A stretch of 24,831 nt of DNA, from the NCBI GenBank assembly GCA_964560805.1, contig CAZLLX010000001.1:1-24831 (forward strand), given 5' to 3'. This document shows positions 17,478 through 23,773 of the stretch, in pieces (position 1 is the stretch's first letter; each line of letters opens with the position of its first letter). The stretch is from an uncultured Candidatus Saccharibacteria bacterium. Lineage in GTDB: Bacteria > Patescibacteriota > Minisyncoccia > Phycocordibacterales > GWA1-40-21. The position numbers and the translations under genes are program-made. The notes under the pieces were generated by a model. That model did not search any database. It saw nothing but the letters and a program-made list of their open reading frames with translations, and had not been told where the DNA came from.

Positions 17478-18698
17478 TTACAAAGCGTCAATTGCTTCAT
17501 TTGCCAAATCTTCTGCCTCATTGGCATAATCTTCGGCGTCTGAATATTCTTCATCATCATAAGCTGCTTCCGCGTCATCTAATTTATCATTAGCATCACT
17601 TAGATAATCCTCAGCATCACCAACATCGTCTCCATTATCATCAGCGTCCGCAATTTCATTTTTAGCGTCTTTAATGGCACTTTTAGCATCACTGATTGCC
17701 TTTGAGGCCTTTGATTTTGCAGAACTTGAAGAACTAGAGCTTGAGCTTGAGGATTTTGTTCCGATTGAACTAATGGCTTTTTTAACCAAGCTTGATGCTT
17801 CATCAGCAGACTCTTCTGCTGATTCATAATCCTCATCATCTAGATAATTTCTAGCCTCATCAAGCTTATCTTTGGCTTGATCAAGTAAATCTTCAGATTT
17901 ACCGACACTTTTACCATCTCGATCAGCTTCGTTAATTTTTGATTTCGCCGAAATAATATCACCTGCCACATCATCAATTAAATTATCAATTTCATCCTCC
18001 TGGGTTTCACCACCAGCATCTTCATATCCATCTTTAGCGCTCTTGTATGAATCATCTGCCAAATCAAATGCTTCTTTATAATCTTTATCCAAATATGAAA
18101 CTACGGCATCAAACAAATCACGTTTTGCATCATCCAGGCTATCTAAAGCTGATTCCTTATTTTGATTTGAATCATCAATTTGATCGTCAGCATCATTAAT
18201 CATTTTAACTGCTTCTTTGATTCGGGTCTCAGCCTTTTTAGCATCAGCCGATGAGCTGGTTGTACCACCCTGATTTTTTAACTGAGCTTTTAAATCAAGT
18301 AATTGATTAGTTAAACTCACAATCAAAGCACTAGACGAGGTTGAATTTGAGGCACTAACTGAACCAGCTGATGTTGAACCTTTGATTAGAGATAGAAACT
18401 TGGCTCTTGAAGCTGGGCCAAAGAAACCGGATGCAGGTAAGCCATGATCTTTTTGCCACTTGGCAACCGCCTCTTGAGTTAGGGTTTTGTATTGATTAGT
18501 TTCATGGCCAGGTGAACCAACACCATCCTTTGAAATAGTATATCCATTATTGTTTAGATATTTTTGTAGACAACGAACATCCTCACCGGTTATACCATCA
18601 TCAAGGTCGCGGGTAAAATTACAGCCTGAATCGGCTGACACATTAAGCGCAATCAAACTTAAAACAAAAATTAATGAGAGATTAAATATTTTTTTCAT
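17478..18698 (-). CDS. Secreted peptidoglycan-binding protein with three acidic helical repeats
   Basis: Signal peptide. PG_binding_1-like G.DVR.LQKYL...T..AV.KWQ..HGLPASGFFGPASRA. Ser-rich linkers and three ~75-80 aa repeats. Confidence 0.82.
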   Translation of the reverse strand: MKKIFNLSLIFVLSLIALNVSADSGCNFTRDLDDGITGEDVRCLQKYLNNNGYTISKDGVGSPGHETNQYKTLTQEAVAKWQKDHGLPASGFFGPASRAKFLSLIKGSTSAGSVSASNSTSSSALIVSLTNQLLDLKAQLKNQGGTTSSSADAKKAETRIKEAVKMINDADDQIDDSNQNKESALDSLDDAKRDLFDAVVSYLDKDYKEAFDLADDSYKSAKDGYEDAGGETQEDEIDNLIDDVAGDIISAKSKINEADRDGKSVGKSEDLLDQAKDKLDEARNYLDDEDYESAEESADEASSLVKKAISSIGTKSSSSSSSSSSSAKSKASKAISDAKSAIKDAKNEIADADDNGDDVGDAEDYLSDANDKLDDAEAAYDDEEYSDAEDYANEAEDLANEAIDAL

Positions 18699-18710
18699 AT
18701 TATTAAATTA

Positions 18711-19619
18711 TTAACTATTAATCAAAAATACTGACAAGGTATTTATCAATTTCTCTTTGATCAAGATCGGCAAAATTCTTGCCCAATCATGAAGCATAGT
18801 GGCTAGTTCAACCCCAACAAATCTCCAATGCCATGGTTCATATTGATAATAGGCGTTATTTTTAGGATATGATAAAACAAAACCATACTTATAAGCGTTG
18901 GCCTGTAACCACTTAAATTCTTCGGTATTCTCAAAAGCAATTGTTAAAGTCGGTGATTTCATAGCCACCAAGTCAACGGTAGTTCCAAGTTGATGTTCTG
19001 AATAGCCTTGATCGGCGGAAAATTGATTTGATCCACTGCCATAGGTTGTTAAATAATTTGCCTTAAGACTTGTTTGATCCTTAAATGAACGATAAGCTGA
19101 GGAAATTTTAAGATCAATGCCGTCCTTAGAATTTGCTCTGTCAATCATTTTTTTCAAAAACGATAGGGCCATTGAATGAAATTGATATGTTCGTTTCGGA
19201 TCAAGAACATATTTTTCCGGAATATTAGACAATCTCATTGGCACATAATTTTCACTCAAGAAATATACTCGTGAATACTTTTGCAGCAACTCCTTATCTG
19301 TTTGTGATAATTTTTCAAGTGTACCAACAGAATCATTTATATCGTTAATTGCGTCTTCAAAAGACTCAGCCCGGTTTTGCTGTTCAATCAAACGTTGTGT
19401 TAGTTCCCTGGTGGTTGTTGCCTGACCACTTTCAATAATTTCAAGTCGCGCGGTAATATTCTTATCATTAATAGCAACTGTATTTTTTAGATTATTAATA
19501 ACTGTAAACTGCCAAACAAAAGCAACAAAAATTACAACTATTACTAAAAACACAATACCGTCAGAAACAAGAAGCCATTTAGTACCAGACATTGATTGTT
19601 TAATTTTATTCCAGTCCAT
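18711..19619 (-). CDS. M15B/VanY-like D-alanyl-D-alanine carboxypeptidase, membrane-anchored; C-terminus probably frameshifted
   Basis: TM plus coiled coil, SAYRS..DQ, SEHQLGTTVD, YEPWHWRF. See the frameshift finding. Confidence 0.9.
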   Translation of the reverse strand: MDWNKIKQSMSGTKWLLVSDGIVFLVIVVIFVAFVWQFTVINNLKNTVAINDKNITARLEIIESGQATTTRELTQRLIEQQNRAESFEDAINDINDSVGTLEKLSQTDKELLQKYSRVYFLSENYVPMRLSNIPEKYVLDPKRTYQFHSMALSFLKKMIDRANSKDGIDLKISSAYRSFKDQTSLKANYLTTYGSGSNQFSADQGYSEHQLGTTVDLVAMKSPTLTIAFENTEEFKWLQANAYKYGFVLSYPKNNAYYQYEPWHWRFVGVELATMLHDWARILPILIKEKLINTLSVFLINS

Positions 19620-19623
19620 ATAT

Positions 19624-20700
19624 TTATTTAGTTAAAGGATGTTGCCAGAAAAAATCTAACATTGTTTTTGTAGCAGAGATATTTTGGGTTGTTGTACCTA
19701 AAATATAATTAAGAATCAGACCATTAACCTTGCTACCAGGCCAGGTATGTCCACCATCAGTAATTGTACAAAGCTCGATTGGATTTTTACCGCCAGCATA
19801 CTCAACACAATTAACATCACCTTGCAAATAAATACCTTTAGCGGAACTAGTGATCTTGTTATTTGTTTTGAAAAAATTAATGGTATCTAAAACAGAAATA
19901 TATGGACCACCAACAACGAAAGATTTTGGTAAACTTTTATCAGAATAACCACCTAAATATGGTACAAATTTATCAGCTGTACCGTGGAAATGAATAATAG
20001 GGATTGCTCTGGTTGGATGACAATCGCTTTTATTTAAGACTAGTACCGAGGCAACGGGTGCGATAGCAGCAAAGGTATCAGTCATTTCACAAGCCAGACG
20101 ATAAGACACCATGCCGCCCATTGAAATACCTGTTGAATATATGCGATTAGTATCAATTTTATATTGTGATGAAATATTTTTTATCATTTCTTTAACAAAT
20201 AATACATCATCAACTTTTTTCTGATATGCCAATCCTCCACCAGCTGGGCCACCATTCCAGGTCGCTTGAATTTCCTTTTCCGTACTTTTAACCGAAGGGG
20301 TACCAAGTGGATATACAACAATGAAATTTCTAGTTTCAGCTTCTACATCCATATTTGACATCTCTTCTATGTTTTTATTGTTACTGCCGCCCCCATGAAA
20401 GACAAAAATAAGCGGTACAGCTATAGAACTATTATATGATTTTGGCACATACAAATTATAAGTTCTTGTTTGACCATTAACAACAACATTGAACGTTTTG
20501 CTGATATTGGTAGCAATTGAATTTGAACTATTTTTATTTGTAATCAATTTACCAGCTACTGTTGCTGTTTGATTAATGAGATCTTCATCACTGGTACTAT
20601 TTTCGCCTAAATAGTCAAAATTTTGACTATTATGAACAAAATAATAACCGACAACTACAAGTAATAATATAATAAACAAAATAGCAATCTTTTTTTTCAT
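19624..20700 (-). CDS. PHB-depolymerase/LpqC-type alpha/beta hydrolase, membrane-anchored
   Basis: R.Y.LYVP, FHGGG, G.SMGG nucleophile elbow, HGTAD, GGHTWPG. Confidence 0.88.
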   Translation of the reverse strand: MKKKIAILFIILLLVVVGYYFVHNSQNFDYLGENSTSDEDLINQTATVAGKLITNKNSSNSIATNISKTFNVVVNGQTRTYNLYVPKSYNSSIAVPLIFVFHGGGSNNKNIEEMSNMDVEAETRNFIVVYPLGTPSVKSTEKEIQATWNGGPAGGGLAYQKKVDDVLFVKEMIKNISSQYKIDTNRIYSTGISMGGMVSYRLACEMTDTFAAIAPVASVLVLNKSDCHPTRAIPIIHFHGTADKFVPYLGGYSDKSLPKSFVVGGPYISVLDTINFFKTNNKITSSAKGIYLQGDVNCVEYAGGKNPIELCTITDGGHTWPGSKVNGLILNYILGTTTQNISATKTMLDFFWQHPLTK

Positions 20701-20721
20701 GTTTACATTATACCAAATGCC

Positions 20722-20773
20722 AATAAATATTAAAACACCACCTCAAAGTTTGGGTGGTGTTTTAATATTTATT
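20722..20773 (-). terminator. Terminator-like hairpin, 21-bp perfect inverted repeat
   Basis: aataaatattaaaacaccacc (20722-20742) pairs with ggtggtgttttaatatttatt (20753-20773). Closes the ECF module. Confidence 0.82.
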
Positions 20774-20776
20774 ATT

Positions 20777-21529
20777 CTACTTATTTAGTTTTGCCTTCAA
20801 AGCAATTTTTAAGGCCTCAACTTTATTTTTAAAATCAGTCTGAGCTTTTTCAAATGCTTGCTTTCTGGTTTCAACTAAAGCTTTAACATTTTCATCTGAC
20901 TTGCCTAGGCCCTTAACAGAATTTTTAAAGGTTTCTTGGGCTGATTTTACACTTGCCTGAAAAGTTTCTTTGACTGTAGTGTTATCAACACCAGCTTGGC
21001 AGTCGACCTTGGCCTTATTTACAGCTGACTCAATAGCGGCTTTTCTAACGGCAATTGCTTCTGAAATTTTTGTCTGTCTATCACTAACTAATGAATCAAT
21101 ACCCTTTCGATAAGCATCACGCGCAGCATCAACAGCGCTCTGTCTTTCGGTAACTGCCGCCTTTACGCCAGCTTGAAATTCAGTAATTGCTGCTTTTGCC
21201 TCAGTTGAAGTAGCTTTGTTTAATAAGTTATCAATTTTAATTTGCTCTTTATTTAAAGCTTCAGTTCTCTTGGCTGACACTTGATTATCTTTTTCCGCTC
21301 GTCTTGTACTCATTTCTGATTCTCGCTTATCAAGTCTACCCTTAATTTCTGCTTCTTTATTGGCTAATTTCAAGGCAGAATCACCAAGTTTCTTATCAAG
21401 ATTTTCACAAAACTTGGCACCTTTATTTTCCTTTGGTAATTTTGCACCATCTGTAGCCGCAAACATGAATTGTGGCACGATCAAGGTTGCAAGAACGAAA
21501 GCACTTATAATTTGTTTATTGTATTTCAT
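20777..21529 (-). CDS. Secreted Ala/Lys-rich all-helical (coiled-coil) protein
   Basis: Signal peptide ending FMFA, long heptad-like helices, two Cys. Overlaps the upstream gene by 14 nt. Confidence 0.8.
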   Translation of the reverse strand: MKYNKQIISAFVLATLIVPQFMFAATDGAKLPKENKGAKFCENLDKKLGDSALKLANKEAEIKGRLDKRESEMSTRRAEKDNQVSAKRTEALNKEQIKIDNLLNKATSTEAKAAITEFQAGVKAAVTERQSAVDAARDAYRKGIDSLVSDRQTKISEAIAVRKAAIESAVNKAKVDCQAGVDNTTVKETFQASVKSAQETFKNSVKGLGKSDENVKALVETRKQAFEKAQTDFKNKVEALKIALKAKLNK

Positions 21530-21950
21530 AATTTGAATTAATTAAATCAACTGATAAATCTTCATCACTATAAACCGGCTCATCAAAGATACTGTCAATT
21601 TGATCAAGCTCGGTCAACAATGAATCAACATCAACTTCTTCGCCGGCTACTTCAACTTTTGTCTCGGTAACCAGGACTGGCTTGATTGGCTTTGGCTTCA
21701 TGTCATCATTTATCATAAAGACAAAGGCGACAATTAGAGCCGAAACCAATACCCCACCAGACAATATTTTTACTTTTTTCGACATATATTCTATTAAACT
21801 ATTAAATTTACCCGTCTGCTTATTATAACGAACAACTTGATCATTTGTGACATTGATTTTAGTCTGATCAAGAATTGAATTCAAAAGAGCTGGTTCTGGT
21901 TTAACCGAGTTAACGATTTCTGCTATTTGATTTTCATTAAAACTTTTCAT
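21516..21950 (-). CDS. Putative single-TM anti-sigma factor
   Basis: ATG abuts the ECF sigma stop. ~60-aa cytoplasmic N-terminus, one TM helix, acidic tail. Function inferred from position and topology. Confidence 0.6.
   Translation of the reverse strand: MKSFNENQIAEIVNSVKPEPALLNSILDQTKINVTNDQVVRYNKQTGKFNSLIEYMSKKVKILSGGVLVSALIVAFVFMINDDMKPKPIKPVLVTETKVEVAGEEVDVDSLLTELDQIDSIFDEPVYSDEDLSVDLINSNYEIQ
21825..21854 (-). promoter_or_regulatory. ECF-type promoter motif, copy B (intragenic)
   Basis: Minus strand aatgtcacaaa-tg-atcaa-gttg-ttcgttat. Confidence 0.6.
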
Positions 21951-22496
21951 TTATTCTTTAAAATTTATTATCTGCCTTAAATTTTTTATTCCTCGAGATT
22001 GTAGTTGCCTAACCGCTTCTTCGCTTTTTCCCATTATCTTGGATATTTCTAAGTTACTTTTATCATCAAGGTATTTCAGGATTAAAGCATCTGCCTCATT
22101 TTCCGATAACTGATTCAAGGCCTGCTTCAATTCGCTTATCTGATCTTTTTGCTCGGCAATCGTTTTGGGTGTTTCGTTTTCAACTAGTAAATTTTCAGCA
22201 GCCTCGTCAGCTATTGTCGGTATTTTCTTTCTGCGATAATTATCAATTAACAGATTTCTGGCAATTGTATAAAAATATGTTAGTGGATTTCTGTCTGTTA
22301 TTTTATATGTATCCAGTGAATTAAAGATTTTTATGAACACATCTTGGGTTAAATCATTAGCCAAATCTGCATCGCTGGTTCTAAAATAAAAATAGCGATA
22401 TATTGGCGTCAAATACACTTCGTAAATCTGACCGAAGGCTTCTTTGTCCCCGTTTTGTGCTTTTACTATCAAATCCTTTATTTCCACTTCTATCAT
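21951..22496 (-). CDS. ECF (sigma-70 group IV) RNA polymerase sigma factor
   Basis: AQNGDKEAFGQIYE.Y, A.DLTQDVFIK, YFYTIARN..ID.YR, L..LSENE..., EIS.IMGKSEEAVRQLQSRG. Start placed at ATG 22496. Confidence 0.93.
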   Translation of the reverse strand: MIEVEIKDLIVKAQNGDKEAFGQIYEVYLTPIYRYFYFRTSDADLANDLTQDVFIKIFNSLDTYKITDRNPLTYFYTIARNLLIDNYRRKKIPTIADEAAENLLVENETPKTIAEQKDQISELKQALNQLSENEADALILKYLDDKSNLEISKIMGKSEEAVRQLQSRGIKNLRQIINFKE

Positions 22497-22498
22497 AA

Positions 22499-22528
22499 AT
22501 AACGAAATTATTGATTCTTTGTGACATT
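22499..22528 (-). promoter_or_regulatory. ECF-type promoter motif, copy A (putative autoregulatory)
   Basis: Minus strand aatgtcacaaa-ga-atcaa-taat-ttcgttat. CGTT lies 4 nt before the ATG. Confidence 0.68.
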
Positions 22529-22531
22529 TTA

Positions 22532-23773
22532 TCACAAAAACAGCAAATCTCTGTCTAAATCATCGGAATCAGTACCACCTGGGTTATTTTTAAGTGCTTT
22601 TTGACTTGAAGCCAAATACACCGCCTTGCTGCCAAATTTTTCTTCTAACTTATCAATTTGCTCGTGGATTATATCAAACTTATTAGATTTGGAGGCCGAT
22701 ATAAATAAACCATCTTGAATTAAATGTTTTTTAGTTAAATTATGAAGAACAATGCCGGTTGTTCGATATAATTTATTTTTTTGAAAGATATTTGGCAAAT
22801 GCTTTTGAATTAATGAAAATATTATTTCTGGACTGTTAGTAAAAGAGCTTAGATTAATTGTTAAGTTTTGATAATCAAAATTTTTAGTTTTTAGAAAAAA
22901 TGTAAAGCGATTAGTTTTTAAATCAAAGTGTCTAGCTTTTAAACAAGCTTCTTCGGTATGTTTTGATAATTGTGACAATAAAAAATCCCTGTCTGAATTG
23001 GCTGGATAAAATGATCGAGTTTTTTGAATTGAAGAAAAATCTTCTTTAGGTTTTTGGTTGACCATTAATAAACTTTCTCCCTTTAATTCACGCCATAGGA
23101 TTTCAGCGGGTTTATGAAGATTAGTTTTGATCCAAGTTAAGTCCTTATTTATAAAATCAAACGCCAAAATCAATCCCATTTTGTTTAGTTTTTCTGCACT
23201 TTTGGGGCCAATACCCCAGATTTTACCTAATGGTGTTTTACTTAAATAGAAATCAACTTTCTCTTTTTCAATTACCGTTAAGCCGTTTGGTTTTTGCCAT
23301 TTCGAAGCCACTTTAGCTAAAACCTTGGTAGGGGCCAGTCCGATTGATACTGAGAGTTTTAATTCATTACTGATTTCATCTTTTATTTTTTGTGCAATTT
23401 CCAAATAGCTTAGTTTTAAAATTCTATCGTAACCAGTTAAATCAGCGAAACATTCATCAATGCTGTACTCTTCAACGATGTCTGCATAACGACGAACAAT
23501 ATCAAACATTAATTCAGAATATTTTACGTAACTTTTATAATCACCTGGTAAAATTATAATTTTGGGCCAAGTTTTTTTAACCTTACTGGTTGGCATACCG
23601 CGAACCACACCAAGAGCTTTGGCTTCATAAGATAAGGCTGTAACTATTCCTCGTTCTTGTCCGGTCACAACCGGTAAACCTTTTAATTTTGGATTTTTGG
23701 CCACTTCAACACCAACAAAAAATGCATCGCCATCAATATGTAAAATGCATTTTTTGTTGGTGATTTTCTCCAT
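22532..23773 (-). CDS. dinB: Y-family DNA polymerase IV (DinB/UmuC-like)
   Basis: HIDGDAFF, SYEAK..GV..GMP, YSIDECFADLTG, SIGLAP.K.LAKVAS..QKPNGL, IWGIG, D.L..KFG. Start placed at ATG 23773. Confidence 0.92.
   Translation of the reverse strand: MEKITNKKCILHIDGDAFFVGVEVAKNPKLKGLPVVTGQERGIVTALSYEAKALGVVRGMPTSKVKKTWPKIIILPGDYKSYVKYSELMFDIVRRYADIVEEYSIDECFADLTGYDRILKLSYLEIAQKIKDEISNELKLSVSIGLAPTKVLAKVASKWQKPNGLTVIEKEKVDFYLSKTPLGKIWGIGPKSAEKLNKMGLILAFDFINKDLTWIKTNLHKPAEILWRELKGESLLMVNQKPKEDFSSIQKTRSFYPANSDRDFLLSQLSKHTEEACLKARHFDLKTNRFTFFLKTKNFDYQNLTINLSSFTNSPEIIFSLIQKHLPNIFQKNKLYRTTGIVLHNLTKKHLIQDGLFISASKSNKFDIIHEQIDKLEEKFGSKAVYLASSQKALKNNPGGTDSDDLDRDLLFL

Follow-up and report, generated by a model that had tools for sequence, protein, structure and literature searches.

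Operons that encode an extracytoplasmic function (ECF) sigma factor together with its anti-sigma factor are already known to carry internal promoters dependent on that sigma factor, which in the known cases lie before the whole anti-sigma gene and serve negative feedback. In E. coli the sigmaE-dependent rseA P3 promoter is found inside rpoE and transcribes rseABC (Rhodius et al. 2006, as cited in PMC8595263), and in C. glutamicum the SigH-dependent promoter PrshA of the sigH-rshA unit transcribes only rshA (Busche et al. 2012, PMC3489674). An ECF promoter within protein-coding sequence is also exemplified by the RpoE-dependent micL promoter inside cutC (reviewed in PMC8103513). Here, we have analysed a 24,831-nucleotide (nt) stretch of DNA (contig CAZLLX010000001.1), the whole of which we call the window, from an uncultured Parcubacteria/Minisyncoccia-type bacterium of wastewater origin. 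It encodes a module of an ECF sigma factor, a membrane protein (gene 2, a putative anti-sigma factor) and a secreted helical protein (gene 3). The same ECF-type promoter motif stands directly before the sigma gene (copy A, or P_A) and again inside the open reading frame (ORF) of gene 2 (copy B, or P_B), and a comparison of homologous loci indicates that copy B is under selection beyond the protein that it encodes.

This arrangement resembles rpoE-rseABC in several ways. In E. coli an ECF sigma factor drives the promoter of its own gene and a second promoter within the coding sequence of the operon, the second giving a shorter transcript without the sigma gene, and the gene order is likewise sigma factor, membrane anti-sigma factor and secreted partner, with gene 3 in the position of RseB. 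The second promoter differs in its placement, since rseA P3 is located within rpoE, 228 nt upstream of rseA, and yields full-length anti-sigma factor (negative feedback), whereas the motif of the module lies inside the anti-sigma-like ORF, past the predicted sigma-binding segment, which a short transcript could not encode. PrshA is similarly a sigma-dependent promoter within a sigma/anti-sigma unit that serves the downstream part only, but it drives a complete ZAS anti-sigma gene and shuts the response down, with no truncation and no third gene, and the C. glutamicum sigma gene is itself on housekeeping promoters. Our loci share with rseA P3 and PrshA an operon-internal cognate motif that lies past the start of the sigma gene, supplied by copy B in 18 of 20 loci and by an alternative site in the other two; what they do not share is its position before a complete ORF, as the internal motif lies inside gene 2 in the window and 17 further loci. 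Only the two loci that we call L017 and L023 match the rseA P3 or PrshA layout.

The motif is also close to the ECF41 promoter signature, TGTCACA-n16-CGTC (Wecke et al. 2012, PMC3426412), with nearly the same -35 element (TGTCACA), a CGT-type -10 element and a spacer of 16 +/- 1, and the ECF41 regulon is, like the one proposed here, a single neighbouring unit (PMC3426412). ECF41 sigma factors, however, have a C-terminal regulatory extension, work without an anti-sigma factor and control a COE gene (carboxymuconolactone decarboxylase, oxidoreductase or epimerase), whereas the sigma factor of the window has 181 amino acids (aa) and no extension, its gene is followed by one for a membrane protein, and the neighbouring genes yielded no COE domain. 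The sigma factor has instead the build of ECF group 4, being small, having only regions 2 and 4 and ending with region 4. The likeness to micL is that of a functional ECF promoter embedded in protein-coding sequence, but the micL promoter yields a small RNA and not a shortened mRNA of the host gene. What is new here is the placement inside the anti-sigma-like ORF, past its predicted sigma-binding segment, the lock on codon choice across a family of candidate phyla radiation (CPR) bacteria at ~24% protein identity, and an apparently self-contained regulon.

The two motif copies and codon use inside gene 2

A first-pass annotation of this DNA had reported a 30-nt minus-strand motif that occurs twice with the same spacing, and both copies lie where it placed them (Table 1). 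They are identical at 24 of 30 positions, in blocks of 11, 5 and 8 bases, and share the form TGTCACA-N15-CGT(T/A), which fits the ECF41 signature taken as TGTCACA-n16(+/-1)-CGTC. The window holds no further copy, as had also been stated: the full degenerate 30-mer at up to 3 mismatches finds only copies A and B, with 0 expected, and TGTCACA-N13-17-CGTT gives two matches against 0.03 expected from shuffles. A scan of the draft genome that holds the window (538,939 bases, 81.6% complete), which the annotation had proposed, found ATGTCACAAA at copies A and B only, and these are also the sole good bipartite matches there. One detail needed correction, in that copy A ends 2 nt and not 4 nt before the sigma ATG. 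Copy B occupies codons 33-42 of gene 2 (N33-V-T-N-D-Q-V-V-R-Y42), with GTC ACA encoding V34 and T35 (21851-21846) and CGT encoding R41 (21830-21828). The overlapping TATAAT (21827-21822) was likewise correctly noted, and an in-frame methionine codon, Met56, follows 39 nt past the CGTTAT hexamer, close to the 40 nt first estimated.

To assess how this sequence behaves among relatives, we compared 20 loci for which DNA was available, all of them sigma factor/membrane protein/secreted helical protein modules, which we gathered by following up sigma homologues, by searching 1.8 billion representatives with a profile and by searching genomes. Their sigma factors are 38-83% identical to that of the window and their gene 2 proteins have a median pairwise identity of 24%; the loci are related, so the counts across them are not fully independent. 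Copy B lies inside gene 2 in 18 of the 20, its GTC ACA always in frame 0 and its spacer always 16 nt, at codon numbers ranging from 33 to 78, since the N-terminal domains differ in length.

Codon choice within copy B hardly varies. The Val codon is GTC in 18/18, against a background share of 12-20% of Val codons, the Thr codon is ACA in 18/20 (background 22-36%) and the Arg codon is CGT in 19/19 (background 15-25%). The third-codon base preceding GTC is T in 16 of 18 loci, whichever of eight amino acids it helps to encode, T also ends the codon that follows the Arg in 17 of 18, and GTCAC and CGT are invariant in the loci with copy B. Control columns that are equally conserved as protein (the Pro in K-P, three Leu, several Gly and Val) use 3-5 codons, and in the K-P-x3-L-L-x2-I-L segment upstream of copy B the protein is conserved while the codons are free (four for Pro, five for Leu). 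At 24% identity synonymous sites should be saturated, and the invariance therefore points to selection on the DNA or RNA sequence. The proposal of dual DNA and protein coding, with a promoter-like copy inside the next gene, is thus well supported by comparison, and the check suggested for it, in-register conservation of synonymous sites in homologous genes, was passed strongly. Judged from these alignments, copy B is a DNA-level element, and it seems to be the promoter that forces the conserved peptide motif V-T-x5-R on the gene 2 protein. For the micL promoter, we are not aware that conservation at codon level has been reported between distant lineages.

We also considered whether 21786-21950 might be untranslated, which would make copy B an ordinary intergenic promoter. 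This is ruled out by the gene 2 frame, which is open upstream of copy B in all loci, and by the conserved protein with free codons in the control columns there, which indicates that this part is translated. As a separate observation, an invariant pentamer, GGTCG, is found 18-30 nt after the copy B hexamer in 12 loci (for example L021, L014 and L034). Its Gly codon is GGT in 13/13 and its Arg codon CGT or CGA in 13/13, never AGA; L031 keeps the pentamer in another reading frame, and it is missing from the clade of the window, L006 and L007, in which there is a deletion.

Bipartite motifs with a CGT-type -10 element are typical of ECF promoters. Upstream of the sigma gene, [G/A]TCAC-N16-CGT (N17 in two loci, one of them L017) is found in 15 of the 16 loci with upstream sequence, the sole exception being L023, which has a TATAAT-type promoter instead. 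This motif before the sigma factor's own gene is consistent with an ECF assignment. The distance from its CGTNNN hexamer to the sigma ATG is 2-11 nt across the loci. The sigma protein matches Sigma70_r2 of Pfam at 2.4e-14, as well as Sigma70_r4_2 and Sigma70_ECF, and exceeds the cutoff of TIGR02937; among NCBIfam models the best is of BldN type, for which the score falls below the cutoff. The N-terminus aligns with homologues from MIEVEIK. An alternative start at GTG 22535 (GTGA, overlapping the stop of the preceding dinB-like gene) was discarded, as the homologues align from the ATG given in Table 1.

Promoter reading, predicted start sites and possible products

The genome itself informs how near to a start codon a promoter may lie. 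TATAAT is found exactly 6 nt before ATG in 27 of 353 long ORFs, and TANNNT in 64, while Shine-Dalgarno cores are nearly absent upstream of starts. Because the TATAAT-N6-ATG peak is sharp and Shine-Dalgarno cores are almost absent, this genome is predicted to be largely leaderless, with most mRNAs beginning at or near their start codons, so that promoters would normally have their -10 element a few nt ahead of the ATG. The esterase gene after the module is a leaderless example, with TATAAT at 20707-20712 and its ATG at 20700. The reading of the motif as an ECF-type promoter, which the first-pass annotation had put forward, fits both the leaderless-promoter distance of copy A and the likeness to the ECF41 signature (PMC3426412).

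Further members of a regulon were sought with loose scans of the window's own genome and five near-complete module-bearing genomes, which gave only chance-level extras. In the five genomes the loose motif GTCAC-N16-CGTWW is no commoner than a reversed-pattern control, and GTCACA/G...CGT(T/A)A picks out only the module's own copies (A and B where both matched). With no extra copies of the motif, the putative regulon is the operon itself.

In an ECF promoter of T. tengcongensis, CGTC occupies positions -13 to -10 (PMC3397946), from which the P_B start site can be estimated to lie near 21819-21816, ~7-8 nt after the hexamer. The sigma ATG of the window lies only 2 nt past its hexamer, and the P_A transcript may for this reason begin inside the first sigma codons and use GTG 22487, the alternative sigma start if transcription begins ~7-8 nt after the hexamer.

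Read from its sequence, the gene 2 protein has a cytoplasmic N-terminus (residues 1-55), a transmembrane helix (residues ~64-80) and an acidic extracytoplasmic C-terminus, and in most loci the gene adjoins or overlaps the sigma stop. Neither short nor long forms of the protein match a Pfam or NCBIfam family, and hence no recognised anti-sigma domain (zf-HC2, RskA etc.) is present. A complex prediction for the sigma factor with gene 2 residues 1-58 scored 0.60 against 0.07 for the best control. This passes a mark that 51 of 78 solved complexes and 2 of 108 mismatches also attained, but any pass at 0.60 or under is rated weak. In this weak model residues 3-33 contact sigma regions 2 and 4, and all of these contacts lie upstream of copy B. 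Taken together, gene order, topology and the predicted complex make gene 2 a putative anti-sigma gene.

Downstream of copy B, Met56 is conserved in most homologues together with K-x-x-K-I-L-S-G-G, which leads into the transmembrane helix. In 12 of 18 loci the first ATG to follow copy B is in frame, compared with an expected proportion of 0.336 (P = 0.004, with the reservation that the loci are not independent), and out-of-frame ATGs are depleted there; in L021, L024 and L029 the distance from the copy B hexamer to an in-frame ATG is exactly 6 nt, the spacing of a leaderless start. Gene 3 adjoins gene 2 in 17 of 20 loci, and one of the remaining three contigs ends just after gene 2. The two genes overlap by 14 nt in the window (N-Y-E-I-Q-stop against M-K-Y-N-K) and by 11-14 nt in most loci. 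The Glu codon inside the overlap is GAA in 17/17, which makes the overlap another place of dual coding, and translational coupling is likely to occur there. Because the genes overlap and no Shine-Dalgarno sequence is present, translation of gene 3 probably depends on ribosomes finishing gene 2.

These elements can be combined into a mechanism. P_A, directly before the sigma gene and leaderless or nearly so, would give positive autoregulation of the whole operon. Active sigma factor would most likely also start a second, shorter transcript at P_B, near 21817, covering only the membrane and extracytoplasmic two-thirds of gene 2 together with gene 3, and this transcript would lack the presumed inhibitory segment, given that the predicted sigma contacts all lie upstream of copy B. 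Ribosomes would probably start in frame inside gene 2, at Met56 in the window, and then reinitiate at gene 3, such that the short transcript would supply an N-terminally shortened, sigma-blind gene 2 protein and extra gene 3 protein while adding no sigma factor or inhibitor. We consider it probable that copy B is a functional second sigma-dependent promoter. A functional shortened gene 2 protein is a more doubtful matter, possible on the features around Met56 but with the balance tilted somewhat against it.

A bolder view, which we offer tentatively and hold to be rather less likely than its opposite, is that the anti-sigma gene is divided by the promoter into two parts that are expressed separately. 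The full-length inhibitor would come from basal transcription at P_A, and sigma factor once freed would make from P_B the isoform of transmembrane helix and acidic tail along with its secreted partner. Either this sigma-blind 'sensor-only' isoform would lock the switch on, as it could compete with the full-length anti-sigma factor for a partner or an inactivating signal, or the isoform and gene 3 would be the real output, and V-T-x5-R would exist only because RNA polymerase reads the DNA beneath it.

Weighing the promoter reading and its rivals

The two loci that lack copy B are instructive here. L017 and L023 have lost the V-T..R residues as well, and carry instead GTCACG-N17-CGT 51 nt before the sigma stop, a place at which none of the 17 other loci compared has the motif. 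It is built from the Ser-Arg...Arg codons of region 4.2. In L023 (G767:C5, locus coordinates 759-1379) the sigma gene has its TATAAT-type promoter with no ECF motif before it, and the relocated motif, whose hexamer lies 10 nt before the gene 2 ATG, is the only ECF-type motif of the locus; the L023 sigma factor would not be autoregulated and would have genes 2 and 3 as its targets. What is conserved throughout seems to be the need for another promoter-like site past the start of the sigma gene. The placement in L017 and L023, within the 3' end of the sigma coding sequence and ahead of a full-length gene 2, suggests that what has to be kept is a second promoter serving the genes downstream, and not necessarily a shortened anti-sigma factor.

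The same two loci show that the module can work with its second motif upstream of a complete gene 2, and this is one of several points that weigh against the mechanism set out above. The first in-frame ATG after copy B varies from 3 to 69 nt in its distance, which does not guarantee a shortened protein, and in four to six loci an out-of-frame ATG comes first. In the clade of the window the sigma ATG, 2 nt past the -10 hexamer, is nearer than the expected start site. That this sigma factor recognises the motif is something we infer from sequence, and none of the 20 listed sequencing runs that hold DNA of the locus is recorded as RNA. The shared ancestry of the loci also needs to be kept in mind wherever counts are used.

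These points bear most directly on the alternative that P_B is a real sigma-dependent promoter whose sole role is to raise gene 3 above the sigma and anti-sigma factors, any shortened gene 2 peptide being a by-product of translational coupling or not made at all. This alternative keeps the promoter claim and differs from our preferred explanation only on the shortened protein. It gains from gene 3 being the sole other gene in the unit before the terminator, from the lack of other motif copies in the genomes searched, from the inconstant position of the ATG after copy B, and from the retention of a second motif in L017 and L023 even though it there precedes a full-length gene 2. On the other side, Met56 and the K-x-x-K-I-L-S-G-G that follows it are conserved, out-of-frame ATGs are depleted after copy B, and the 11-14-nt overlap without a Shine-Dalgarno sequence argues that gene 3 needs ribosomes reading the end of gene 2. 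On this evidence we regard a role confined to gene 3 as unlikely, while still deserving serious consideration.

The remaining alternatives depart from a sigma-dependent promoter altogether and all seem very improbable. Copies A and B could be operator sites for a DNA-binding regulator, for which TGTCACA is suitably close to a palindrome (TGTnACA is a short inverted repeat) and two sites ~670 bp apart could form a loop. Against this, neither the central C nor the CGT that follows 16 nt later varies, the bipartite -35/-10 geometry matches ECF promoters, copy A is at promoter distance from a leaderless start, and no regulator gene is conserved beside the module in the homologous loci. We find it no easier to accept that copy B of the window is mainly a housekeeping-sigma promoter (GTCACA-N18-TATAAT) giving constitutive internal transcription. 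A consensus scan does score it 10/12, and TATAAT overlaps the hexamer in the window, L006 and L032, but TATAAT is absent from the other 15 loci with copy B, in which GTCAC and CGT are still invariant, and copy B lacks the ATG 6 nt further on that is the rule for housekeeping promoters in this genome. Least credible of all is an RNA-level or purely protein-level constraint (structure, pausing or a binding peptide) with only incidental likeness to copy A, which could claim the invariant GGTCG pentamer in 12 loci, but selection on the protein has no means of fixing synonymous codons or the third-position base before them, and each lineage has the same bipartite motif ahead of its sigma gene although the DNA there is otherwise unrelated.

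The module, its neighbourhood and its significance

The module is tightly packed on the minus strand, downstream of a gene for a dinB-like Y-family polymerase (Table 1). The gap of 35 nt between the dinB-like stop and the sigma ATG is filled by copy A. The stop itself lies 5 nt from the -35 element with no terminator between them, and basal sigma expression could be fed by read-through from the dinB promoter.

Table 1. Positions in the window of the module's genes and signals, in minus-strand order
Feature	Position	Strand	Details
dinB-like Y-family polymerase gene, end	22532	-	Stop TGA 22534-22532
Copy A (P_A), putative ECF promoter of the operon	22499..22528	-	TGTCACA (-35) at 22526-22520; CGTTAT (-10 hexamer) at 22504-22499
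ECF (group 4) sigma gene, 181 aa	21951..22496	-	ATG 22496 taken as start; Pfam Sigma70_r2, Sigma70_r4_2, Sigma70_ECF
Gene 2, 144-aa single-pass membrane protein, putative anti-sigma factor	21516..21950	-	Family alignments; topology from sequence
Copy B (P_B), second promoter motif inside gene 2	21825..21854	-	TGTCACA 21852-21846 (V34 T35); CGTTAT 21830-21825 (R41 Y42)
Met56 codon, candidate start of an N-terminally shortened gene 2 product	21783..21785	-	First ATG in any frame after copy B
Gene 3, 250-aa secreted protein, signal peptide and long four-helix bundle	20777..21529	-	AlphaFold2 model; overlaps gene 2 at 21516-21529
Hairpin followed by T-run, directly 3' of gene 3	20724..20771	-	Probable end of the transcription unit

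The gene 3 protein was modelled by AlphaFold2 with a pLDDT of 81, as a long four-helix bundle behind a signal peptide. It matches no Pfam or NCBIfam family and no PDB fold at E <= 0.001, and its matches among AFDB clusters (E 3e-9 to 4e-8) are unnamed proteins and one named for DUF5667 (E 6e-9, TM 0.76). It may be an output protein, or it may act like RseB as a partner of the acidic gene 2 tail. Two further genes on the same strand downstream of the module encode a VanY-type peptidase (18711-19619) and a very acidic, Ser/Asp-rich secreted protein of 406 aa (17478-18698). Equivalents of the former in L009 and L006 match Pfam VanY, and in L006 the VanY gene is also 3' of the module. Both of these envelope genes may be functionally linked to the module, though they lie beyond its terminator.

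The order of the three genes is retained between loci while the flanking genes vary, and the neighbourhoods in L007, L014, L015, L016 and L017 differ from that of the window (dinB, clpP, Fic, TPR and HxlR genes). Homologues of gene 2 are rare. Among 52 genomes of the same family two others gave matches, one of them marginal (E 5e-4), and at E <= 1e-5, with the window's own genome counted, matches were found in 5/401 sampled genomes at the level of the order, 8/401 at that of the class and 3/401 at that of the phylum. A scan with the gene 2 alignment found no locus in genome contigs, and in metagenome contigs only the contig already known. The differing neighbourhoods, together with the presence of the module in only ~1-2% of genomes sampled from its order and class, suggest that it is an accessory cassette which is gained and lost.

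We found no literature on ECF sigma factors in Parcubacteria, and the module offers a rare entry point to gene regulation in these uncultured, largely leaderless CPR bacteria. Copy B sits at the boundary between the predicted sigma-binding part of gene 2 and its membrane and sensor part, and as dual coding it represents a clean and statistically strong case of a transcription signal dictating a conserved peptide motif. The apparently self-contained regulon could be moved into a heterologous host. If the proposed circuit is true, then it would amplify an output and a sensor fragment without adding inhibitor.

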